IMG/VR virus record: IMGVR_UViG_3300044712_002337
Coordinates: 82,564 to 146,563 of that record
DNA from: a virus
Taxonomy: Duplodnaviria; Heunggongvirae; Uroviricota; Caudoviricetes
Strand: one strand, 5' to 3'
Length of the DNA: 64,000 bases
Part shown: positions 5,968-41,682 of the stretch, piece after piece
How positions within the stretch are numbered: the stretch's first letter is position 1
Layout of the letters: each line of letters starts with the position of its first letter
The notes under the pieces: generated by a model
What the model was told of the DNA's origin: nothing
What the model saw: the letters and a program-made list of their open reading frames with translations, nothing else
The model's database searches: none
Program-made: the position numbers and the translations under genes

Positions 5968-7200
5968 AAGATGTGAAGTCCACATAATTGGGTGTTTGAC
6001 GTGTACTTAACGGTTGATATCAGACTCATCGCAACGTCCGCCCAGGCGGAGTCGCTGGCCCGCACGGCGGTCGCCTTCGCCGCCGCCTGCGACCACGTGA
6101 GCGGGTACGCGTTCGAACACAAGCTATTCGGCCGGTTCGCCCTCCAGAAGGCGGTGTACCGCGACGTCCGGGAGAAGTTCGGCCTGTCCGCCCAGACGGC
6201 CTGCCTGGTCGTCGCCCGGGTGGCCGCCGCGTACAAGCGGGAGCGGGGCGTCCGCCACGAGTTCCGCCGGCCGACCGCCACCTACGACGACCGCGTCCTC
6301 GCCGTCGACCTCCCCGCCCGGACGGTCTCCGTCTGGACGGTGGACGGCCGCCTGAAGGGGGTACCGTTCGTCTGCGGGGCGCGGCAGGCCCGCCAACTGG
6401 AGGGCGAGCGGGGCGAGGCCGACCTGGTGTGCCGGGACGGGCGGTGGTACCTGCTGGTGACGGTGACCGCCCCGGAAAAGCCGCTCCGCCCGGCGACGGA
6501 CTACCTGGGGGTGGACCTCGGGGTGTACACCCTAGCGGCGGACAGCGATGGCGTCCGACACTCGGGCAAAGCGGTCAAGAGCGTCCGCCACCGCCACCGG
6601 CGGCTTCGCCGCAAACTCCAGAAGAAGAACACCAAGTCGGCCCTGCGGCGACTTCGCTTGCTGGCCGGGAAAGAAGGAAGGTTCGCTACCCATGTAAACC
6701 ACGTGTTGTCGAAAAAGTTGGTCTCGGTCGCCGAACGCACCGGCCGCGGGATTGCCCTGGAGGACCTCCGGGGTATTCGCGGGCGGATCAGGGCTAGCAG
6801 GGCGACGCGGGCTCAGCTCCACTCCTGGGCGTTCGCCCAGCTCCGGTCGTTCATCGCCTACAAGGCCGCCCTGGCGGGCGTCCCAGTGGCGGTGGTGGAC
6901 CCGGCGAACACCTCTCGCGCGTGCGCCGCTTGCGGGCACTGCGAGAAGGCCAACCGCCGCGGACGAGAGTTTCTTTGTCGCTCGTGCGGTTTTACCGCCG
7001 ACCCCGACACCAACGCGGCGGAGAACATCCGTCGGGCCGCAGTAAACCGGCCGAACGCCTGGAACGGCTCCGCCGTGGCCGGGTAAAGCTCATGACAAAA
7101 ACCTTGGGCGTTTACGTGGCCCGACTTGTCAACGCAGGGCTTATGAGTGACGGAGTAATAGTCACTCCAAGGCTACCACTTGAGAAGAGGATTAGGGGTC
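5968..7200 (+). mobile_element. IS200/IS605-family (IS1341-like, TnpA-less) element carrying tnpB copy 1; boundaries approximate
   Basis: TnpB ORF with subterminal hairpins (ATGTGaagtcCACAT upstream; GAGTGACggagtaatagTCACTC downstream, candidate omega-RNA region). Confidence 0.5.
5992..7086 (+). CDS. tnpB: TnpB (OrfB) RNA-guided nuclease, IS200/IS605 family
   Basis: RuvC-I GVDLG, RuvC-II ALEDL, C-terminal CxxC..CxxC zinc finger and RuvC-III DPDTNAAENI. Confidence 0.85.
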   Translation: MFDVYLTVDIRLIATSAQAESLARTAVAFAAACDHVSGYAFEHKLFGRFALQKAVYRDVREKFGLSAQTACLVVARVAAAYKRERGVRHEFRRPTATYDDRVLAVDLPARTVSVWTVDGRLKGVPFVCGARQARQLEGERGEADLVCRDGRWYLLVTVTAPEKPLRPATDYLGVDLGVYTLAADSDGVRHSGKAVKSVRHRHRRLRRKLQKKNTKSALRRLRLLAGKEGRFATHVNHVLSKKLVSVAERTGRGIALEDLRGIRGRIRASRATRAQLHSWAFAQLRSFIAYKAALAGVPVAVVDPANTSRACAACGHCEKANRRGREFLCRSCGFTADPDTNAAENIRRAAVNRPNAWNGSAVAG

Positions 7201-20259: not shown

Positions 20260-20544
20260 GTGACATCCCACTGCCTAGACCTGTTGGCCGAGACGGTCCT
20301 CACCCTGCCCCAGGCGGCGGCGGTGCTGGCGGTCGACGCCGCCACCGTCGGGCGGTACGTGCGGGCGGGCCGGCTGGAGGGGGTGCGGGTGGGCGGGCGG
20401 TGGAAGACCAGCCGGGAGGCGGTCGCCCGGTTCCTGGCCGGCACCCAGCCGCGGGCGAAAGCCGACCCGCCCGCCCGGACGCCCGCCGGCCGCCGCGGGG
20501 AGAAGGCCCTCGCCCGGCTGCGGGCGATGGGGGTGAAGGTCTAG
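20260..20544 (+). CDS. excisionase-like / AlpA-type HTH DNA-binding protein
   Basis: LTLPQAAAVLAVDAATVGRYVRAGRLEGVRVGGRWKTSREAV winged-helix pattern; divergent from integrase. Confidence 0.5.
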   Translation: MTSHCLDLLAETVLTLPQAAAVLAVDAATVGRYVRAGRLEGVRVGGRWKTSREAVARFLAGTQPRAKADPPARTPAGRRGEKALARLRAMGVKV

Positions 20545-21758
20545 CCCGACTTCTTGGCGGCGTCGACCGCGTCCTTGTCCACCGGCCGCGAATACCGCTC
20601 GGTCGTCCGGGCGTTCTTGTGCCCGAGCAGCTTCTGGGCGACGTCCAGCCCGTGCTCGCCCCGGAACTCCACCCCGGCGGCGTGCCGCAGCTGGTTGCTG
20701 GTCCACTTCGCCACCCCCGCCCGCCCGCACGCCCGCTCGATGGCCTGGTTGTACGTCGCCGTCGTGTACCACAGCCCGACCCGGGCGGACGGCCCCTTCT
20801 CCGCCTGCTGCCGCTCCTTCACCTGGGACGGGTACCTCGGCCGCCGCTCGGCCCGCCGCCGGGCGAGCTGCTCGCGGGCGGAGGTGCGGGGGCGGAACAC
20901 CGGCAGGTCGGGCTCGGCCCAGTCCAGGTACGGGGCGAGCACCGCCTGGGCGGCGGGGCCGACGTACACCTCCCGCGTCTCCCCGGCGTGCGCCCGCTTG
21001 TGCCGGTCCGGCCGGAACACCCACACCGCGGCCCCGCGGTCAATCAGGCCGGGCGTCAGCCCGCACACGTCCTGCGGGCGGCACCCGGTCAGCCGGTGGA
21101 ACCGCACCATGGCGGCGACGGTCGGGGTGAGGTGCGGGAGGGTGGCCTCCACGTCCGCGTCGCCCACCGCCTCGACCGTCCGCTGCTCGGGGGCCCTCGT
21201 CTTCCCCTTCTTCAGCCCGTCCACGCTCCGCAGCTGGAACCACTTGCCGGCGGGCACCAGCTCCATCTTCTCCCCCCACCGGAACACCGCCCGCACCCGC
21301 CGCGCCTGGGCGTTCACGTGCTCGCGGGTCCACCCCTTGGCCACCATCGCGTCCCGCACGCGGATGAGCGCCCGCGGCCCGAACTCGGCGGCCGGGTCGA
21401 GCGGGCAGACGGTGCACAGCACCCCGACGGCCGCCTTGTAGTACTTCGTCTCCGACGCCGAGTACCCGACCAGCTCGGCCGCCAGGAACGCCTCGGCCAG
21501 TTCGGCCACGCACACCCCGCCCTTGGGCGGCCGCGCCGGCCCGGGCGGGGCGGGGGGCGGGGCGGGCGGGGCGTCGGGGTGCCCGGCCCGCCACTCGGCC
21601 AGGAACGCCTGGTACGCCGCCTTCGACTCCTCGCTCCCGTACCGGCCCAGGTACACCCGCACCCGGTCCCCCTTCTGTTCGTCGTACACGAAAACGAACG
21701 CCCGGTCGGTGGCGCGGTGGCGGCGGTAGGTGGGGACGACGTTGCGGGGTCGGGACAC
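20541..21758 (-). CDS. int: tyrosine recombinase / phage integrase
   Basis: C-terminal catalytic region LRHAAGVEFRGEHGLDVAQKLLGHKNARTTERYS (R..H-x-x-R..Y). Confidence 0.85.
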   Translation of the reverse strand: MSRPRNVVPTYRRHRATDRAFVFVYDEQKGDRVRVYLGRYGSEESKAAYQAFLAEWRAGHPDAPPAPPPAPPGPARPPKGGVCVAELAEAFLAAELVGYSASETKYYKAAVGVLCTVCPLDPAAEFGPRALIRVRDAMVAKGWTREHVNAQARRVRAVFRWGEKMELVPAGKWFQLRSVDGLKKGKTRAPEQRTVEAVGDADVEATLPHLTPTVAAMVRFHRLTGCRPQDVCGLTPGLIDRGAAVWVFRPDRHKRAHAGETREVYVGPAAQAVLAPYLDWAEPDLPVFRPRTSAREQLARRRAERRPRYPSQVKERQQAEKGPSARVGLWYTTATYNQAIERACGRAGVAKWTSNQLRHAAGVEFRGEHGLDVAQKLLGHKNARTTERYSRPVDKDAVDAAKKSG

Positions 21759-26395: not shown

Positions 26396-27640
26396 ACGAC
26401 CGCCGGCTTCAGCCGGCGGCTTTGTGCCTCAGCGGTCTGGGCACTGATATGGGTGGTTTACGGCACCCCTAGCCGCGATGTTGCGCGCGGCGTTCTGGTC
26501 GGCGTGGGCGGCGTGCCCGCACGACGTACAGGAGAAGCGGTCTTGGGACTTCCGGCTCGCCTTGTCGATGTGCCCGCAGGCGAAGCACGTCCGCGACGTG
26601 TTGCGGGGGTCCACCGCCACCAGCGGCACCCCGGCCAACTTCGCCTTGTAGGTGAGGCAGTGCCGGAGGTGGTGGAACGCCCAGTTGGACAGCCGGGAGC
26701 GGTGCCGCGTGCGAACCGTTTTCTCCGTCCTGGTGCGGACGCCGTTGAGGTCTTCGACGGCGATACCCACGCCCAGACGGAGTGCCTTGGCGACAACCGT
26801 TTTGGAGATGCGGTGGTTCTCCCCCTTTTGGTAACGGGACTGCTTACCGGCGAGCGCCTTCAGCCGCCGCTTGGCGGACTTGGTTCCCCGGCGTTGGAAG
26901 CTTTGACGGGCCTTCAGGTGCCGCTTGCGGTGGCGTTCCACGTCCGCCCCGGTGTGCCGCTCGCCCTCGGAATCGGTGAGGACGTTGGCGATGCCCAAAT
27001 CCACCCCGAGGAAGGCCGACACCTCGGCGGCGGGCGGTTCGGGCACGTCGGCGGTGCAGTACAGGAAGAACTTCCCCCCGCGGTACACCAAGTCGGCCTG
27101 CCCCTTGAGGGCGTGCAGCGTGCCCGTGAAGTAGTCGCCGGCCACGTAGGGCACCAAAATCCGCCCGCCCATCGTGAGCAGGCTCACCCGGTCGACGCCC
27201 TTGAAGGAGAACGTCCGCTGGTCGTAGGTGACAGCCCCCAGGGGTTTGAACACCGGGCACTGGGTCTTGTCGCGGGCGAAGCACTCGACCGCCTTGCCGA
27301 TGGCGCGGACGGCGGTCTGCGAGGACACGCCGAACGTGTCCCGGAGGGCGCGGTAGCAGAGCTTGTGGATGGACGGCTGGGAGAACACCCGGTTCTCAAA
27401 CCCCACCCGCGCCGCTTCGGTGGCGGCGGCGTTGAAGGCCCGCATGTACGCGAGCAGGGCTGGCGCTTGCCCGGCGTCCGGCAGCAGTTTGATTTGCACG
27501 ACGAGTTTCACGACGGCATTTTAGGATGCCGTTTGTCCGTAATCAACCCCGGAGAGCGGCTTACCTCTGTCGCCTGAAGGCGACAGTCTCACGCCGCGAA
27601 TTTATGAGAGCGGGCTGTCGCCCGCATGTTAAAAAGGAAA
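26396..27640 (-). mobile_element. IS200/IS605-family element carrying tnpB copy 3; boundaries approximate
   Basis: 5' subterminal hairpins CTGTCGCCttcaGGCGACAG and GGCATcctaaaATGCC; 3' hairpin GCCGCCGGCTgaaGCCGGCGG. Confidence 0.5.
26429..27511 (-). CDS. tnpB: TnpB (OrfB) RNA-guided nuclease, IS200/IS605 family, copy 3
   Basis: GVDLGIANV, AVEDL, CFACGH...CTSCG zinc finger, HADQNAARNI. Confidence 0.85.
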   Translation of the reverse strand: MKLVVQIKLLPDAGQAPALLAYMRAFNAAATEAARVGFENRVFSQPSIHKLCYRALRDTFGVSSQTAVRAIGKAVECFARDKTQCPVFKPLGAVTYDQRTFSFKGVDRVSLLTMGGRILVPYVAGDYFTGTLHALKGQADLVYRGGKFFLYCTADVPEPPAAEVSAFLGVDLGIANVLTDSEGERHTGADVERHRKRHLKARQSFQRRGTKSAKRRLKALAGKQSRYQKGENHRISKTVVAKALRLGVGIAVEDLNGVRTRTEKTVRTRHRSRLSNWAFHHLRHCLTYKAKLAGVPLVAVDPRNTSRTCFACGHIDKASRKSQDRFSCTSCGHAAHADQNAARNIAARGAVNHPYQCPDR

Positions 27641-33230: not shown

Positions 33231-33571
33231 GGGGTGGCGGGTTCGAACCGGACGACGGTGATGAAGTCGTTCCGGTCGAACTCGGGGTGGCGGTCGGACT
33301 GAATCTCGCTAATCCGGTCGGCCGAGCGGAACCCGAGGCGGCGGGCCTGCTCGTCCGTCATGCCGTTCAGCAGGGTGTAGGTGACCTCGGTGACGCGGAC
33401 CCGGCGGCCCTCGACCAGCCCGTTCGGGACGGCCCCCGAAGGGGACCGGTTGGGGAGGAACAGGAGCGGCCCGGGGGACACGTCCAGCTTGCCCCAGCGG
33501 GCGGTGGTGCGTTTCGTCCCCTGGTCAATCAGGGGGAACTGGTCGGCGTCGAGGTAGAGGGTCTGGCTCAC
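33227..33571 (-). CDS. ASCH-like protein (second copy)
   Basis: similar size and pattern to 32452..32781. Confidence 0.4.
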   Translation of the reverse strand: MSQTLYLDADQFPLIDQGTKRTTARWGKLDVSPGPLLFLPNRSPSGAVPNGLVEGRRVRVTEVTYTLLNGMTDEQARRLGFRSADRISEIQSDRHPEFDRNDFITVVRFEPATP

Positions 33572-33572
33572 G

Positions 33573-33911
33573 TCAGGCTCCGGCGGGCGACAGGGGAATG
33601 ATGGCTCCTACGACCTGGTCGGCGGCCCGCGTCTGCGTGTCCAGGTCCACGAGGGCGTCCCCCAGGTCACACTTTTCGGCCGCGTGCACGCCGTCCACGA
33701 CGCCCCTCGCCATGCCCGCGGCCATAGACATCTTGGCGTACGCCGCCCACAGCTTCTCCCGCCCGGCCGCTTCGGCCGCACACTCCCCCAACGCCGCCTC
33801 GAACCGGGCCTTGTAATCGTCCGGGTCGACCTGCCCGCTCGCCCGGTAGTCGGCGGCGACGGCCCCGAGGAGTTCGCCGAACAGGCCGGCCAGCTTGATG
33901 ACGGCGGTCAT
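33573..33911 (-). CDS. hypothetical protein
   Basis: internal ATG (MTAVIKLAG) after GGGGAAAACC. Confidence 0.4.
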   Translation of the reverse strand: MTAVIKLAGLFGELLGAVAADYRASGQVDPDDYKARFEAALGECAAEAAGREKLWAAYAKMSMAAGMARGVVDGVHAAEKCDLGDALVDLDTQTRAADQVVGAIIPLSPAGA

Positions 33912-34219
33912 TTGGTTTTCCCCAGGAGGGACTTCTCCACCCACCCGTACCCGACCCCGTCCAGGTGGGCCCAGGCGAAGTTCGGGCCGGGGGCGGTGCC
34001 GACGGGCGTGGCCCCCAGGGCGGACTTCGGCGGGGCGAAGGTGGCGGCCAACCGCTGAACCGGCCGCGGGGCGACCGCGCCGAACTGGACCGACCCGCCG
34101 AGCGGGCCGGACAGGGTCACCCCGAACCCGGGCCGGCACTGGCCGCCGGGGCACTGGGCCTGAGCGGCCGCCACTCCGAGGGCCGACGTGAACAAGGCGA
34201 GTGCCGTCTTCGTGACCAT
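33908..34219 (-). CDS. hypothetical small secreted Cys-containing protein
   Basis: signal-peptide-like N-terminus MVTKTALALFTSALGVAAAQA. Confidence 0.4.
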   Translation of the reverse strand: MVTKTALALFTSALGVAAAQAQCPGGQCRPGFGVTLSGPLGGSVQFGAVAPRPVQRLAATFAPPKSALGATPVGTAPGPNFAWAHLDGVGYGWVEKSLLGKTK

Positions 34220-34244
34220 GAACTTCGTCCTTTTTGAAGGGAAC

Positions 34245-34431
34245 GACCCCGAGGGGTCAGTGCGGCGGGATGGGGTCGAACCACCGCGCCCGGCTTGCTT
34301 AGGGCCGTTGCTCTTGCGGCACACTTTCTCGGAAGCGGTATGGCGCCATTCTCGCTCCCGTTCCGGTGAACCGCCCCGGTCCCGCCCGTCTGCAAAACGG
34401 TCAAGGTAACCGGCCTGCTGAGCTACCGCCG
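34245..34431 (-). ncRNA. tRNA-like structured RNA (perfect 7-bp acceptor GCGGCGG/CCGCCGC, T-arm GGTGG-TTCGACC-CCATC, TGC anticodon-like hairpin) with ~100-nt extra region
   Basis: acceptor/T-arm/U8-A9-GCTC elements found by eye; not a canonical tRNA. Confidence 0.3.
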
Positions 34432-34486
34432 CATGGAGGCCCGGGCGTGAGAACCACCGACGGGGGCCGAAGCCCCGCCCAGGCCA

Positions 34487-34553
34487 GTCGGAGGTAAGGG
34501 AGTCGAACACCTTCCACCCGGGTTATGAGCCCGGGGCGAGCACCGGCCCACCT
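34487..34553 (-). ncRNA. tRNA-like element with CAT anticodon stem-loop (CCGGG-CTCATAA-CCCGG), non-canonical D/T arms
   Basis: acceptor GGAGGTG/TACCTCC with G-U; anticodon loop canonical; T-arm fails. Confidence 0.25.
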
Positions 34554-34575
34554 CCGCCGTCACGTCAACACCCGC

Positions 34576-34603
34576 ATATTAACTGTTTTTATAAAGTAGT
34601 CAA
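34576..34603 (-). promoter_or_regulatory. sigma-70-like promoter driving the tRNA-like RNAs / downstream operon
   Basis: minus strand TTGACT -N16- TAATAT. Confidence 0.5.
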
Positions 34604-34690
34604 CACGACTTCGTCGTGATTTTAAAAGGGGTGACTCACACGGGCGATTTTCCTCTTTTAACAGGCGGGCCCCGCCCGCGGGGTGTCCCC
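34604..34690. repeat. composite cassette: GATTTTAAAAGGGGTGACTCA ... GATTTTCCTCTTTTAACAG + hairpins GCGGGCcccGCCCGC / GCGGGGtgtCCCCGC after dnaE-C stop Confidence 0.5.
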
Positions 34691-34691
34691 G

Positions 34692-37190
34692 CTAAATCTG
34701 CCAAAACTCCGTCGCCACGAACCCGTCCCCCCGCCGGGACGGCTCCAGCGCCACCTGCAGCACGTTGCCGTCCCGCAGGAGGGCGCGGTGTTTCTCATAA
34801 TCGTCAGGAAAACAGACGATTTCGTTGAGCGAGCCCGACTCGTCGCCCAGGGTGAGCCAGGCCATGTCCCGCCCCTTCTTGGTGCGGAACGCCCGCGAGC
34901 TTTTCAGGACGGCGCACACGCGGACCTTCTCCTTGCGGCCGTCGAGCAGGTCCTTGATGGGGGCGGTGCGGCCGGACACGTCGGCCCCGGCCAGCTTGGT
35001 GTAGGTGACGGGCACCCCCAGGGCCTTCTCCTCCAGCTCGGCAATCACCCGGGGCGTGTCCGCCTCGCTCGTGGGCGGGTGGTCCAGGAGGTAGGCTTCG
35101 TCCAGGAGGTCCTGAGTCGTGTTTTTGTTGGCGGCGGCGCCGCCCTCCTTCTTCGGCCTGGCAGCCGAACGAATTAGCTCCGCCAGGCTATCGGCTTCAC
35201 CCGCGTGGCTGACCAGCCACGCATGGACGGTCTTCTTGGACTTCAGCCGCGCCACGCACTTGGCCTCGTTCGCCTGACGTAACCGCGGCACCGAAAAGTG
35301 GGCGAACGCCCCCGCGTAGGCGAGCCCCTCCATCACTTTAACGGGCACGGTCGTGCCGACCTTCAGCAGGAAGTGGGTCCAGGTCCAGTCGGACAAAGGC
35401 TTTCCGCTCGACTCCTCTTCGGCTTGGATGGCCTCGACCATCTTTTCCACGTGCCCGTCCCCCACCCCGCTCACGTCGCACAGCCCGAACACGGCCGCGT
35501 CCCCGTCCAGGTCCACGCGGGCCGAGCGGGTGCGGACGTCGGGCGACCGAACCTTAATGTTCGCGGAGCGGGCGTCGTTCACCAGGAGGGACGCCTCCTC
35601 CTCGCACCCCTTCTTCTTCCCCTTGAGGAAGGCCAGGGCGAGCCAGTTGGCGTAGAAGGCGAGGGGGAAGTGGGCCTTCAGGTAGGCGGTCTTCACCGCC
35701 TTACACCCGTACGAATAAGCGTGGCTGTTGCAGACCACCAGCCCGTCGTTCACCACGAAGTTGTGGTTCGGGGCGTCCATAGTCACATCGTACGTCTCGC
35801 ACTCGCCGTCCGGCTCCACCGACACCACCCGCGTTTCCACCCGCGGGGCTCCCTTCTCCCCCCGCTTCACCCGCCCGCAGGCGTACTCCTTCTTCTTGTG
35901 GCAGGAGACGCACAGGAGTTGCAGGTTCTCGGGCTCATTGTTCGAGCGGTCGCCGTCGATGTGGTCCATCTCCAGGCGGCCCTCGGTCTTGCCGCACAGT
36001 TCGCACACCTTCGCCTTGGTCGCCTTCACCGCCTTAAACGAGGTGAACCCGCCGCCGGTGTACGCGTAGTTGTTCTCGCCGAACGCCCCGTTCACGAACC
36101 GGCCTTCCACGTACGGTCGGGTCTCGTTCGTGTACTTGCTGAAGTTGTACCGCTTCCCGTTCCCCTTCTCGTACTCCCCGCGGCGGAACACGACGACCTC
36201 CATCCCGAGCAACACCCGCCGGGCGATTTCAGCCACCGTCAGTTCGCCATCGGTGGTCGGCACCTTATGGTTGCCCGTCAGGCGGACTGACTGACCATCG
36301 GAGGTCGTGAGCCGGAACACCGGGCGGTAGCCGGCCGGCTGGATGTCGCGGATGAGGTTCGGGCGGACCCGCCCGTCCTCGCACATGGACAGCCCCTGGC
36401 CGTAGTGGCCAAGCCGCATCCACTTCCGGCGGAGCACGTCGTGCCCGTGTTTTTGGGCGTACCGGATGTCGTTCCGGATGCGGTACATGTGGCCGACCGT
36501 GTAGCCCACCCCCTTCACCTGCCCGCCCGTGCCGTACCGGACAATAATCGTATCCTCTGACGCGCACTTATTAAATGAGTACCGTGCCGACTCCTGAATC
36601 CAGTCGAACAACTGGACGGCGAGTTCGTAGGGGACGGCCCCGTACTCTTTGGCCCGCTCCAGGAACTTAAGTCGAGTGTCTGCCATGAGCTGCGCATCCT
36701 TCTTCCCGGCTGCCTTCCGTAGGAGCTGCGCCTCGGCTTTAGAAAAACCCGCAACCACTTCCGACAACTTGCAAATCTGTTCTTGAAAGACGACGACGTT
36801 GTAAGTCTTTGCCAGTACTTCATCTACGACGGGGTGTAGAGACTCCGTCTGCTCGTCCCCGTTCTTGCGGAGGACGTAGTGCTCCGTCATCGACACTCCA
36901 TTACTATCACGAGCTTTTAAACAACCGGGCCGGAGCAGACTAACGAGCGCACAGATGTGTTCCTCGTTCTCCGGCTTCAACATCTTGGACCACTTCTGGC
37001 CGAGGTACTCCTCCAGCTGGAACACCCCCTTGGTCTGCCCGTGCGCGAACAGGTTCGCCACCGCCGAGCAGAACGGGGCCTTGCGGATGTCCACGTCCAG
37101 GGCCGGCAGCCCGCCCGGGTAGGCCGGCGGCCCCACGACCGGCCAGGAGCACCCGCATTTTTTAAAGTGGTAAATTTCGTTCGTAGGCAC
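34692..37190 (-). CDS. dnaE: DNA polymerase III alpha (DnaE) C-terminal half with inserted HNH intein
   Basis: GVFQLE, VVFQEQ, FNK|C...intein...N|SHAYSYGCKAVKTAYLKAHFP; GTG start. Confidence 0.8.
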   Translation of the reverse strand: MPTNEIYHFKKCGCSWPVVGPPAYPGGLPALDVDIRKAPFCSAVANLFAHGQTKGVFQLEEYLGQKWSKMLKPENEEHICALVSLLRPGCLKARDSNGVSMTEHYVLRKNGDEQTESLHPVVDEVLAKTYNVVVFQEQICKLSEVVAGFSKAEAQLLRKAAGKKDAQLMADTRLKFLERAKEYGAVPYELAVQLFDWIQESARYSFNKCASEDTIIVRYGTGGQVKGVGYTVGHMYRIRNDIRYAQKHGHDVLRRKWMRLGHYGQGLSMCEDGRVRPNLIRDIQPAGYRPVFRLTTSDGQSVRLTGNHKVPTTDGELTVAEIARRVLLGMEVVVFRRGEYEKGNGKRYNFSKYTNETRPYVEGRFVNGAFGENNYAYTGGGFTSFKAVKATKAKVCELCGKTEGRLEMDHIDGDRSNNEPENLQLLCVSCHKKKEYACGRVKRGEKGAPRVETRVVSVEPDGECETYDVTMDAPNHNFVVNDGLVVCNSHAYSYGCKAVKTAYLKAHFPLAFYANWLALAFLKGKKKGCEEEASLLVNDARSANIKVRSPDVRTRSARVDLDGDAAVFGLCDVSGVGDGHVEKMVEAIQAEEESSGKPLSDWTWTHFLLKVGTTVPVKVMEGLAYAGAFAHFSVPRLRQANEAKCVARLKSKKTVHAWLVSHAGEADSLAELIRSAARPKKEGGAAANKNTTQDLLDEAYLLDHPPTSEADTPRVIAELEEKALGVPVTYTKLAGADVSGRTAPIKDLLDGRKEKVRVCAVLKSSRAFRTKKGRDMAWLTLGDESGSLNEIVCFPDDYEKHRALLRDGNVLQVALEPSRRGDGFVATEFWQI
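35727..36566 (-). mobile_element. intein (Hint + HNH endonuclease) in DnaE at the FNK/SHA site
   Basis: block A CASEDTIIV, block B TGNH, HNH HIDGDRSNNEPENLQLLCVSCH, C-terminal NHNFVVNDGLVVCN followed by Ser. Confidence 0.7.
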
Positions 37191-39215: not shown

Positions 39216-39602
39216 TCATTTCTGATGGGAAACCCACTCCCACATCGCGTCCCGGGCGGCCTGGTAATAGTCTTTCTTCACCCGCTCGTACCGCCCGCAC
39301 GCCGGCCACGACTCCAGCATGGCGTCGACCATCCGCAGCCACGTCGAAACCTGCCCCACGGTCAAGTCGTGGGCGAACTCCAGCTTGTGCAGGCGGCTGT
39401 CCAGCCAGCCGTCGTACCCGCCGTCGCACTCGAACCAGGAAACGCCCGCGCCGAGCAGCCGGTCGACGGACTCCAGGTACGAATGACGATTCACCCCGTC
39501 GGCCTGCCACTCCGCCCACGGCCGGGTCAGCACCCGCGGGTCGATATCTTCTCGCCCCGGCCACCAACACCCCGTCGGGGCCGGGACGCGGATGTCAATC
39601 AT
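39216..39602 (-). CDS. hypothetical protein
   Basis: 128-aa Trp-rich ORF. Confidence 0.45.
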   Translation of the reverse strand: MIDIRVPAPTGCWWPGREDIDPRVLTRPWAEWQADGVNRHSYLESVDRLLGAGVSWFECDGGYDGWLDSRLHKLEFAHDLTVGQVSTWLRMVDAMLESWPACGRYERVKKDYYQAARDAMWEWVSHQK

Positions 39603-41682
39603 CTTCGTCCTCCTGGGTCTCTTCGAGCCCTTTCATCCAGCGGTAGTCGGGCACCCGGTGCGTCCGGATGGTCTCCAGACAGCCGACCAGCTTGTCCTCG
39701 ACCGCCACCCCGAGAAAGTCTAATTTAGGCACACCTAATTGTTCTAACTCAGGATAATCCATTCCGGCGATGAGTTCGCCCGCCTTGGCGTCCCACACCA
39801 GCGGGCACATCTCGGCCAGCGGGCGGGCGGAAATGACGATGCCGCTGGCGTGGGTGCCCCGCCCCCGCTTGCACCCCTCCAGCCGGGAGGCCTGGGCGAA
39901 GAGCGGGCCGAGCGGCCCCTCGAACGCCCCGTCCGGGGTGAGCTTGACGAACTCCTGGAAGTCCTCCGGGTGGTGCGTGAGCACGTACTTGATGATGCTC
40001 GCCTCGCCCGTCTCCTCCCGCATCTCCTGCAGCTTGTCGGCAATCTGGTCCTTGCCGGGGAGCCGCTTGGTGATTTCCTTCCGCTCCTTGTAGTCCCCCC
40101 ACCCGTGGGCCGAGAACACGGCGGTCAGGGCGCTCGCCCCGTGCAGGCTCTGGAAGGTGGCGATGTGGGCCACCCGGTCGCTCCCGTACTTCTTGCGGAC
40201 GTACCGGATGACCGCCTCCCGCCGGCCGACCGGGAAGTCCATGTCGATGTCCGGCAGCATGGCCGGCTTCCCGGGCTGGTTACGGGAGTCGTCGTAGAAC
40301 CGCTCGAACGACAGGTCGGCCTTGATGGGGTCGGTGTCGTGGATGTCGAGCAAGTACCCAACAATCGTACCGGCGGCCGAGCCACGCCCTTCGACGGCCC
40401 TCGCCCCGATGGAGATGGCGTACCGGCAGACGTCGGCGGCGATGAGGAAGTAGCCGTGCAGGTTCGCCTTGTCGTACACGGCGTACTCGTGTTCGAGCTG
40501 GGCGCGGTACCTGTCCTGCTCGTGAGCGGGGACCACCCCCGCCACCTTCCGCTCCCACCCCTCCTTGCACAGCGCCCGCAGGTGCTCGCCCTCGGCCTCG
40601 CCGCCCGGCGTGGGGAAGCCCGGCAGTTCGGGCGGGCCGGACAGGCTGTAGCTCTCGCACATGTCCGCGAAGTGGAGGGAGGCCTCCAGCTCGCCCGGCT
40701 CGTGGCGGGCGGCCATGTGTTCGACGGACGGGATGTGGAACTGGCTCGACCGGAAGAAGCCGCCGAGCGTCACGTCTTCGCCGTTGTCGGCCTGCTGTTG
40801 GACCTTGGCCAAAGTCGTCTTGAACGCGTTGCAGAGGAGCACCCGCTGGTCCGGCGCGTCCTCCGGGCGGGCCATGTGGGCGTCCGGGGTGGCCACCACC
40901 CGCGTCCCCGTCTCCTTCCCCGCCCACCGCATGATGTTGGCCAGCACCTGGGCGGCGGGCGAGTTCAGCCTCCCCTCGTCGTCCACGTCGTACAGTTGGA
41001 CTTCGAGCCCGACGTTCTCCTTGCCGAACAGGTCGTGGTACCGGCCAATCTCGCGGACCAAATCGACCTTCAAGGCCGACCAGTCCTTCACGTAAGACTT
41101 GGCCCGCTCGTACGTGGCCGCCTTGTAAGCCGCCTTCGGGTCGGCGAAGACGAAGTCGGCCAGGGTGCTGCCGATGTGCCCGGTGAGGGCAATCAGGTTG
41201 CCGCCCGCGAAGCCGCCCAGTCTTTCTAAATCAAGCCTTGGCTTGTAGTAGAAGTGGTCCGGGTGGTTCGAGGCCGAGGTGGCCTTCAGGAGAGACTGCC
41301 ACCCGGCGCGGTTCTTGGCGAGGATGACCAGGTGGGACAGGCCGCGGTCGTCCTTGTCCTTGACGGTCGCGTCCTTGCGACAGACGTAAAACTCATTTCC
41401 CAGGATGAGCTTCTTCTTCGACGGCTCGTACGCCGGGCACGCCTCCCCGGCAATCAGACACCGCCCCTTCCCCCCGTCCGCGTGCGAGCTCTTCGGCCGC
41501 CCGCACACGCCGCACGCGTCCGCCATCGCCCGCTGGTACGCCGGGGCCCCGCTGACGCTGCCGTGCTCCGTAATCGCCGCGCCGGGCAGGCCGCACTTCA
41601 CCACCCGGGCGGCCATGTCCTGGGGTGATGTAAGTCCGTCTAATAAACTATGTTGACCGTGACAATGAAGAGGATAATACAT
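39595..41682 (-). CDS. dnaE: DNA polymerase III alpha (DnaE) N-terminal half (PHP + palm)
   Basis: PHP LHCHGQHSLLDG...ITEHG, GRGSAAGTIVGYLLDI, catalytic PDIDMDF, HASGIVIS, KLDFLGV; ends with acidic tail and stop before fingers domain. Confidence 0.85.
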   Translation of the reverse strand: MYYPLHCHGQHSLLDGLTSPQDMAARVVKCGLPGAAITEHGSVSGAPAYQRAMADACGVCGRPKSSHADGGKGRCLIAGEACPAYEPSKKKLILGNEFYVCRKDATVKDKDDRGLSHLVILAKNRAGWQSLLKATSASNHPDHFYYKPRLDLERLGGFAGGNLIALTGHIGSTLADFVFADPKAAYKAATYERAKSYVKDWSALKVDLVREIGRYHDLFGKENVGLEVQLYDVDDEGRLNSPAAQVLANIMRWAGKETGTRVVATPDAHMARPEDAPDQRVLLCNAFKTTLAKVQQQADNGEDVTLGGFFRSSQFHIPSVEHMAARHEPGELEASLHFADMCESYSLSGPPELPGFPTPGGEAEGEHLRALCKEGWERKVAGVVPAHEQDRYRAQLEHEYAVYDKANLHGYFLIAADVCRYAISIGARAVEGRGSAAGTIVGYLLDIHDTDPIKADLSFERFYDDSRNQPGKPAMLPDIDMDFPVGRREAVIRYVRKKYGSDRVAHIATFQSLHGASALTAVFSAHGWGDYKERKEITKRLPGKDQIADKLQEMREETGEASIIKYVLTHHPEDFQEFVKLTPDGAFEGPLGPLFAQASRLEGCKRGRGTHASGIVISARPLAEMCPLVWDAKAGELIAGMDYPELEQLGVPKLDFLGVAVEDKLVGCLETIRTHRVPDYRWMKGLEETQEDEDD

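Follow-up and report, generated by a model that had tools for sequence, protein, structure and literature searches.

A promoter-associated pair of aberrant tRNA genes in a high-GC tailed phage, one of which very probably belongs to a family of phage tRNA genes with a large D-loop insertion

We analysed a 64,000-nt stretch of a Caudoviricetes virus (IMG/VR record IMGVR_UViG_3300044712_002337, positions 82,564 to 146,563; hereafter the window), in which the region around 34245-34603 is best read as a promoter-driven pair of aberrant phage tRNA genes heading a minus-strand operon. The promoter-proximal gene (E1) resembles tRNA-Met(CAU), and the second gene (E2) is a tRNA gene whose D-loop is split by 98 nt. 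We are highly confident that both genes are tRNA-derived and that E2 is a member of a phage tRNA gene family carrying such D-loop insertions. Retention of the insertion in the mature RNA is a tentative proposal that leans on structural modelling, and for the whole explanation, which blends the tRNA-derived family with insert retention, we put the probability at roughly 0.5. An earlier note on this DNA had offered degenerate phage tRNAs, tRNA-like regulatory leaders and recombination targets as three options, and the first of them comes closest, as both elements are tRNA-derived and lie behind a promoter-like site in a replication module.

E2 occupies 34432-34261 on the minus strand (172 nt) and consists of a tRNA body and a D-loop insertion. 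Its 5' segment (34414-34432) comprises the acceptor strand GCGGCGG, U8 and A9, the D-stem strand GCUC and the D-loop nucleotides A14, G15, C16, A17, G18 and G19. The 3' segment (34261-34315) starts with A20 and A21 and continues through the D-stem strand GAGC, a linker AA, the anticodon arm, the variable region GGCGC, the T arm GGUGG-UUCGACC-CCAUC, the acceptor strand CCGCCGC and A73, and CCA is not encoded. Between them, the insertion (34413-34316), whose boundaries are set by homology with the two related loci described below, splits the tRNA exactly between G19 and A20. The acceptor stem (7/7), D stem (4/4) and T stem (5/5) are fully paired, and the nucleotides of the tertiary contacts are kept (U8, A14, G15, G18, G19, A21, C48, G53, T54-A58 and C61). 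When the insertion was deleted in silico, ARAGORN in default mode called a 74-nt tRNA-Leu(AAG) with a standard cloverleaf and an aberrant anticodon arm. This arm, CGGCC-CUAAGCA-AGCCG (34307-34291), lies 3' of GAGC and is abnormal in its C31.A39 mismatch, its C37 and its 2-nt linker at position 26 (one extra nucleotide), and an alternative reading gives it a 4-bp stem and a 9-nt loop (CCUAAGCAA). A region scan gave no Rfam tRNA match for E2 even at E<=10.

Relatives of E2 were first sought by scanning viral contigs for TAGCTCAGCAGG, followed after 116-146 nt by GGTTCGANNCC, and matches were kept if the flanking heptamers paired at 7/7 positions. Most matches of the first scan were tandem tRNAs; the locus L125, on a 98.7-kb contig, was not. 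L125 (locus GC 62%) is an otherwise perfect tRNA-Ile(GAU) whose D-loop is interrupted after G18-G19 by 106 nt, and it reads GGCUGAG-UA-GCUC-AGCAGG-[106 nt]-AA-GAGC-A-CCGGU-CUGAUAA-ACCGG-AGGGC-GGUGG-UUCGAUU-CCAUC-CUCAGCC. Read in the same way, E2 is AGCAGG-[98 nt]-AA-GAGC-AA-CGGCC-CUAAGCA-AGCCG-GGCGC followed by the T arm, and the T stem GGUGG/CCAUC is common to both genes. The pattern that found L125 permitted extra bases anywhere from the D-loop to the T-loop, and the insertion was still at the identical site. A second scan yielded L154, whose otherwise perfect tRNA-Thr(UGU) is interrupted by 105 nt at the identical D-loop site. L154 (a 14-kb contig) is identical to L134, which comes from another sample and lies within a 115-kb contig; the locus has 72% GC and carries portal and HK97 capsid genes. 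In all three members (E2, L125 and L154 = L134), the insertion follows GG and starts with CC, and it ends with GC directly before AAGAGC, while its length is 98, 106 and 105 nt, respectively.

Apart from the insert, L125 and L154 are canonical tRNA genes, with a 5-bp anticodon stem, a 7-nt anticodon loop, U33 and a purine at position 37, and deletion of the insert in silico gave ARAGORN default cloverleaves for both (Ile(GAT) and Thr(TGT)). In Rfam, L125 matched the tRNA family with 34.6 bits and the 3' part of L154 with 27.9 bits, and tRNAs of cultured phages matched L125 and L154 in their ordinary 3' halves alone. Compensatory changes among the three members affect 5/7 pairs of the acceptor stems and 2/5 pairs of the T stems. 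With the inserts in place, ARAGORN in default mode found none of the three intact genes, and its intron mode misplaced the insertion in all three and gave a wrong anticodon for L125, so that standard tRNA finders miss or mis-annotate genes of this kind. For E2, the intron-mode call (34432-34260) wrongly puts the intron at the anticodon stem; this placement was dropped in favour of the D-loop placement, which is backed by the homology with L125 and L154.

These comparisons also revise how E2 had been described. The acceptor GCGGCGG/CCGCCGC, the TA-GCTC and the T arm GGTGG-TTCGACC-CCATC named in the earlier note are present, as are its roughly 100 extra nucleotides, though G1 is at 34432 and not 34431, and the note had not seen that the extra nucleotides make up one discrete insertion at G19/A20. 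The element had also been extended to 34245, whereas its tRNA-like part stops at A73 (34261) and 34258-34245 form a separate hairpin. The TGC-anticodon-like hairpin of the earlier note lies inside the insertion (domain H1, see below) and is not conserved in L125 or L154, and we rejected it as an anticodon arm in favour of the arm at 34307-34291. Of the checks that had been proposed, ARAGORN found E1 by default and E2 only with its intron misplaced, and an Rfam scan of the whole window gave nothing at gathering scores; in E-value mode, the region, L125, L154 and L121 gave weak tRNA-clan or chance matches only, with no tmRNA in the region. ARAGORN made ~0.1 default calls and ~0.25 intron-mode calls on Markov-randomised 64-kb windows. 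Because the calls of E1 and E2 lie 55 nt apart on one strand behind a promoter, and because the randomised rate is so low, we do not attribute them to chance.

Further searches did not enlarge the family. An exact search for the 3' end of E2 in viral contigs gave 0 matches, three more pattern scans of viral contigs (a stricter one, one with any D stem and one with the T-loop GGTTCAA) gave no new member, and two protein-based viral scans gave nothing useful. Scanning one metagenome collection returned 2 chance matches and no family member, and a scan of 185,579 GTDB species genomes returned 11 matches, all of them chance matches or tandem tRNAs. No tRNA with a D-loop insert was found in the cultured phages searched, and a custom detector for D-loop inserts, run over all fetched loci, found no additional member. 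All family patterns demanded GCTC/GAGC-like or GGCC/GCAAG features, and members differing there would escape. Relatives of the proteins flanking L125 and L154 (53-63% identity) have no tRNA at the syntenic site. Likewise, in the relatives of the window phage, which were reached through the C-terminal part of its DNA polymerase III alpha subunit (DnaE-C, <=45% identity), a single-stranded DNA-binding protein gene directly follows DnaE-C, leaving neither an RNA gap nor a tRNA.

The three inserts share almost no sequence, do not align and have no common core, and a consensus fold from RNAalifold on a MAFFT alignment was uninformative because the inserts do not align. Nevertheless, two helical domains (H1 and H3) separated by one G are possible in all of them. 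In the window, H1 spans 34413-34376, the single G is at 34375 and H3 spans 34374-34316, all on the minus strand. H1 starts at the first nucleotide of the insert and closes a hairpin domain of 38-42 nt, with closing helices CCGGUU/GGACCGG in the window, CCAAGG/UCUUGG in L125 and CCGG/CCGG in L154. The 3' strand of H3 consists of the final nucleotides of the insert (the last 5 nt in the window), with GCGGU/GCCGC, GCGGCGG/CCGUCGC and GCCG/CGGC, respectively. Pairs 3-5 of H1 change on both sides between the window (CCGGU/ACCGG) and L125 (CCAAG/CUUGG), and two members have G-C as pair 3 of H3 where the remaining one has C-G. When RNAfold was run with the cloverleaf helices enforced and with A14-G19 and A20-A21 kept unpaired, as the tertiary contacts demand, the optimum was exactly the H1-G-H3 arrangement for the window and L125, and for L154 this arrangement lay 1.6 kcal/mol above the optimum. 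Any H1/H3 arrangement occurred in 4-7% of dinucleotide shuffles, and one as strong as that observed occurred in 0.3%, 0.13% and 6.8% for the three sequences. Since the tRNA bodies are intact with compensatory changes, and since the inserts have diverged while keeping their length and closing helices, selection appears to act on both body and insert. A separate pairing was also noted: in all three genes, N16-A17-G18-G19-C-C-N can pair over 5-7 bp with a segment made up of the anticodon stem's 5' strand and positions 32-33 (columns 16-22 and 140-146 of alignment A3), and this pairing would compete with the cloverleaf.

E1, the other gene of the pair, lies at 34556-34487 on the minus strand (70 nt) and was called by ARAGORN in default mode as tRNA-Met(CAT). 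It has a 7-bp acceptor stem (CGGAGGU/ACCUCCG) with A73, does not encode CCA, and carries an anticodon arm CCGGG-CUCAUAA-CCCGG with the three G-C pairs of the initiator-tRNA type. The helix CGGAGGTG/TACCTCCG, this arm and poor D and T arms had all been described before, and our results agree. The centre of E1 resembles mycobacteriophage tRNA-Met, and its anticodon arm is identical to that of the tRNA-Met of Bixzunavirus mycobacteriophages, which is likewise phage-borne and promoter-proximal and does not encode CCA. Compared with the Bixzunavirus gene, however, E1 is ~5 nt shorter in the D-arm region (70 vs 75 nt), has a mismatch in the T stem (U.C) and falls below the Rfam threshold. A normal D arm is absent because the acceptor and anticodon stems are just 14 nt apart; in this truncated arm ARAGORN draws 2 pairs, and the best alternative arm, GGGC/GCUC, would have a 4-nt loop and no linker at positions 8-9. 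No Rfam family matched E1 at gathering scores in the scan of the whole window, and its best tRNA-clan match in E-value mode was tRNA-Sec, with 29.4 bits against a gathering score of 47. E1 is a tRNA-Met-derived gene of doubtful decoding competence. The heptamer GGCCGGU, which forms the junction of G18-G19 and the insert in E2 (34409-34415) and L154, recurs in the truncated D region of E1 (34539-34545, GGUGGGCCGGUGCUC); this may be chance or may be a trace of a related rearrangement in E1.

Both genes lie behind a sigma-70-like promoter, TTGACT-N16-TAATAT (34603-34576, minus strand), with 9/12 consensus matches. This promoter, which the earlier note had already pointed out, is the sole such site in 33500-35200, where shuffles expect 0.0, and it sits in a patch of 52% GC in a genome of 69% GC. 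The predicted transcription start is at ~34569, ~13 nt 5' of E1.

We propose the following pathway for these RNAs. Transcription would start near 34569, and E1 and E2 would share a transcript with the downstream operon, from which RNase P and 3' nucleases would free E1 (70 nt) and E2, and CCA would be added to both after processing, because neither gene encodes it. The insertion would fold into H1 and H3, the closing helices of which begin at its first nucleotide and end at its last, and it would stay as an extra domain projecting from the variable pocket of the tRNA elbow while the L-shaped core remains intact. Position 20 lies in this exposed variable pocket and is the D-loop site most tolerant of extra nucleotides, which is why we favour a retained domain. 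With the domain retained, E2 would be a natural tRNA-scaffolded RNA. Since its anticodon loop is abnormal, a role as a tRNA-like RNA (such as a decoy, or a ligand of host or phage factors that bind tRNA) is more likely for the copy of E2 in the window than efficient decoding. It is our speculation that E1, with its truncated D arm, and E2 both act as tRNA-like molecules and not as efficient decoders.

Several observations weigh against this explanation. The family has three distinct members only, all from metagenomic assemblies. The syntenic relatives of all three phages have no tRNA, and the insert-tRNA genes therefore appear dispensable and sporadic. The H1/H3 model was defined post hoc on three sequences, unconstrained pair probabilities support H1 and H3 in the window only (0.34 and 0.56; ~0 in L125 and L154), the insert of L154 can close end to end instead, and the fold energies are no different from those of shuffles (z of -0.9, -1.3 and 0.0). 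A domain of ~100 nt beside the G19:C56 face of the elbow could also clash with RNase P or the ribosome, which would speak for an insert that is removed or for an RNA that acts outside translation. Finally, the aberrant anticodon arm of E2, its failure to match Rfam tRNA at E<=10 and the sub-threshold score of E1 could mean that both are decaying genes.

Among the other explanations, the insertion might be a new kind of intron, which either splices itself out or is cut out by a nuclease of host or phage before a ligase acts, the exons being joined to a canonical tRNA of 72-74 nt. We regard this as possible, yet unlikely. Once the insert is precisely removed, all three members regain a canonical 8-nt D-loop (AGCAGGAA or AGAAGGAA) and a standard cloverleaf, the anticodon arms of L125 (Ile-GAU) and L154 (Thr-UGU) are flawless, as expected of decoders, an insert beside the elbow might not fit the ribosome, and D-loop introns are known in archaea, as in tRNA-Thr2 of Aeropyrum pernix (PMC3241643). 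However, an archaeal-type intron was rejected, as no member has the 4-bp central helix of a bulge-helix-bulge (BHB): when two 3-nt bulges and a 4-bp helix were allowed any bulge placement within 3 nt of the junctions, the best central helix had 3/4 pairs in the window and L125 and 2/4 in L154. The genomic context (DnaE, a sigma-70-like promoter and Shine-Dalgarno sites) is of bacterial type as well. A group I intron was rejected too. Known group I introns of tRNA genes lie in the anticodon loop, have ~200 nt or more and possess a conserved catalytic core (P3-P8), whereas the inserts lie in the D-loop, are far below this size (98-106 nt), share no conserved sequence core that might be catalytic, and gave no Rfam intron or ribozyme match at E<=1-10 (window region, L125 and L154). 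In addition, neither RtcB nor an RNA ligase was found among the 25 Pfam families listed, out of 29, for 58 window ORFs or among separately scanned ORFs, the window being 64 kb of a ~176-kb contig. By analogy with the intervening sequences of bacterial 23S rRNA, which RNase III excises without ligation and which are known in rRNA and not in tRNA, the insert might instead be cut out by a double-strand-specific enzyme such as RNase III without re-ligation, leaving a two-piece tRNA of ~19 nt and 55 nt. The long helical domains predicted for the insert begin and end exactly at the insertion boundaries, and the 7-bp acceptor stem and 4-bp D stem would bridge the two pieces, but H1 is short and broken by internal loops and would thus be a poor RNase III substrate, and we know of no natural bacterial two-piece tRNA nicked in the D-loop. 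We consider this route improbable.

The copies in the window might also be decaying pseudogenes that give no functional RNA, E2 having been hit by an old insertion and E1 by a D-arm deletion. The low Rfam score, truncated D arm and T-stem mismatch of E1 fit this explanation, as do the C31.A39 mismatch (or 9-nt loop), C37, the extra linker nucleotide and the absent Rfam match of E2 and the tRNA-free syntenic sites of relatives. On the other hand, the damage to E2 is limited to the anticodon arm, with perfect helices elsewhere and all tertiary-contact nucleotides kept, and a strong promoter-like site has been preserved directly upstream. Moreover, the insertion itself is not inactivating debris, because the other two members are fully canonical besides it. 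We therefore hold decay of the window copies to be rather unlikely. That the elements serve as an attP or other recombination site, or purely as a cis-acting 5' leader regulating the operon, is very improbable. A tyrosine integrase is encoded in the window, and the elements come after a promoter and ahead of the first operon gene, this position being all that speaks for a regulatory leader, but the sole integrase gene of the window lies at a distance of 12.5 kb, E2 comprises both tRNA halves and not a 3' fragment alone, no riboswitch, T-box or leader family of Rfam matched, and the tRNAs of L125 and L154 occupy different contexts; the recombination targets suggested earlier thus find little support. 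A small tmRNA-like RNA with an internal tag frame (AUG GCG ... CCC UAA) would account for the tRNA-like ends and for a 16-codon open frame ending with UAA inside E2. This reading is effectively refuted, since E2 has G3-C70 and so lacks the G3.U70 needed for alanine charging, no detector reported it (ARAGORN in tmRNA mode, even at 80% stringency, and Rfam tmRNA), and the frame is not conserved in L125 or L154; moreover, the D stem of E2 is normal, an anticodon arm is present, and at 69% GC open frames arise often. A multicopy mobile element (a MITE or an IS-derived element) was likewise rejected, as each insert found only itself by blastn-short in the 64-kb window and ~170 loci. In our ranking, the retained domain stands first, followed by ligated removal, decay of the window copies and RNase III-type excision.

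The E2 family can be compared with several known systems. Non-canonical introns in the D-loop or D arm of tRNA genes were reported in tRNA-Thr2(UGU) of A. pernix (PMC3241643) and in Cyanidioschyzon merolae (PMC3728597, PMC9602550). Like the phage genes, such genes are interrupted in the D-loop and yield a canonical cloverleaf after exact removal, but their introns carry a BHB cut by the archaeal or eukaryal splicing endonuclease, whereas the phage inserts form none and occur in a bacterial-type tailed phage setting. In archaea, most non-canonical introns fall well below 98-106 nt in length. The group I introns discussed above share with the inserts their position inside a tRNA gene and their occurrence in bacteria and phages, and, to our knowledge, those in the anticodon loop are the only tRNA-gene insertions known in bacteria and their viruses. 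The intervening sequences of 23S rRNA and the expansion segments of rRNA may offer a structural analogy, in that a variable helical insertion would replace a loop at a fixed site while the core is kept. tmRNA, which some phages encode, resembles E2 in its tRNA-like acceptor and T-arm ends and its large internal domain, but E2 keeps the D stem and the anticodon arm and is missed by tmRNA detectors. In the literature, we found D-loop introns for archaea, a red alga and plants and none for phage or bacterial tRNAs, although our coverage was incomplete and a prior description is possible. The D-loop-insert tRNAs of phages are thus apparently a rare, undescribed group.

Three phage tRNA genes with different anticodons and an insertion at the same D-loop position point either to an unknown bacterial route for removing it or to an elbow domain that is tolerated or used. 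Either outcome bears on tRNA processing, on the tailoring of phage tRNAs in the conflict with the host and on the design of tRNA scaffolds. If the domain is permanent, it would make a natural tRNA-scaffolded RNA, possibly directed against host defences that target tRNAs or recruiting a phage factor. With some doubt, we also suggest that high-GC tailed phages might carry an undescribed tRNA class with a two-domain element of ~100 nt at D-loop position 20, as a new kind of intron with neither a BHB nor a group I core or as a permanent domain.

The two other loci of the family differ in their immediate surroundings, one tRNA gene lying directly behind the stop codon of a gene and the other behind a terminator-like hairpin. 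At L125 (1314-1324, minus strand), the stop codon UAG of the upstream 257-aa gene coincides with U8-A9-G10 of the tRNA-Ile, which gives a 10-nt overlap. A further tRNA (Rfam, 45.9 bits) lies 11 nt 3' of the insert-bearing tRNA-Thr (L154, 13343-13416, equal to L134, 7638-7711, both on the minus strand). Its anticodon loop has 8 nt (ACUUCAAA) and ARAGORN assigns no anticodon to it; it may be a UGA or frameshift suppressor. A different arrangement was seen in two viral contigs with a GC of 0.47 (L121, 4460-4643, and L072, 193-376), each with a tRNA-like gene whose acceptor stem pairs at 7/7 positions, whose D arm is normal and whose anticodon arm is interrupted by ~111 nt; this insertion is below the typical size of group I introns and has no Rfam intron match.

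Several short inverted repeats flank the two genes in the window. A perfect one (CACGAC-GAA-GTCGTG; 34604-34618, minus strand), read directly from the letters, abuts the -35 hexamer and could be a putative operator or the end of an upstream transcript. The 54-nt spacer between E1 and E2 contains a hairpin (34438-34485, minus strand) with a 10-bp stem GGCCUGGGCG/CGCCCGGGCC around GGGGC-UUCG-GCCCC, which is also present in the predicted fold; it probably serves RNA processing or stability. Together with the UCCA that comes after it, the hairpin resembles a minihelix. The hairpin behind E2 (34245-34258, minus strand), GACCCC-UC-GGGGUC followed by GUUCCCUUC, was absent from the terminator calls for the region, and, since the next gene begins at 34219, it can be no more than a weak terminator or processing signal. 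This first downstream gene (33908-34219, minus strand) encodes a 103-aa protein that matches no family and whose N-terminus resembles a signal peptide, has a GC content at third codon positions (GC3) of 0.94, and is probably co-transcribed with the E1 and E2 RNAs. In contrast to the adjoining genes, with a GC3 of 0.89-0.95, the region 34260-34560 has an even GC over the codon positions (0.66-0.72), and we consider it non-coding because this periodicity is absent.

The window (GC ~69%) surrounds E1 and E2 with a minus-strand, phage-type replication module. DnaE is split into two minus-strand ORFs ~2.4 kb apart, an N-terminal part (39595-41682) with PHP and NTPase domains and DnaE-C (34692-37190) with the finger, an intein with HNH, and HhH and OB domains. 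Five small genes lie between them, and an RNase_T exonuclease gene and a dNMPase-like gene are situated there. DnaE-C is identical to a JGI protein encoded on a 176-kb contig, its nearest relatives have at most 45% identity, and the split is likewise present in relatives at 45% identity (L016-L021). An intron-mode ARAGORN call of tRNA-Ser(GGA) with a 19-nt intron (39416-39525, minus strand) lies inside the coding ORF 39216-39602 and was taken as a false positive. Farther out, the window encodes DnaB, primase, RecA, ThyX, Dam, a tyrosine integrase and several TnpB proteins. There are up to three TnpB or IS605 OrfB-like (Cas12f1-like TNB) ORFs, two of which could be placed at 5992-7086 (plus strand) and 26429-27511 (minus strand). 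The tyrosine recombinase (20541-21758, minus strand), which has a Phage_integrase C-terminal match, suggests a temperate lifestyle or a resolvase role.

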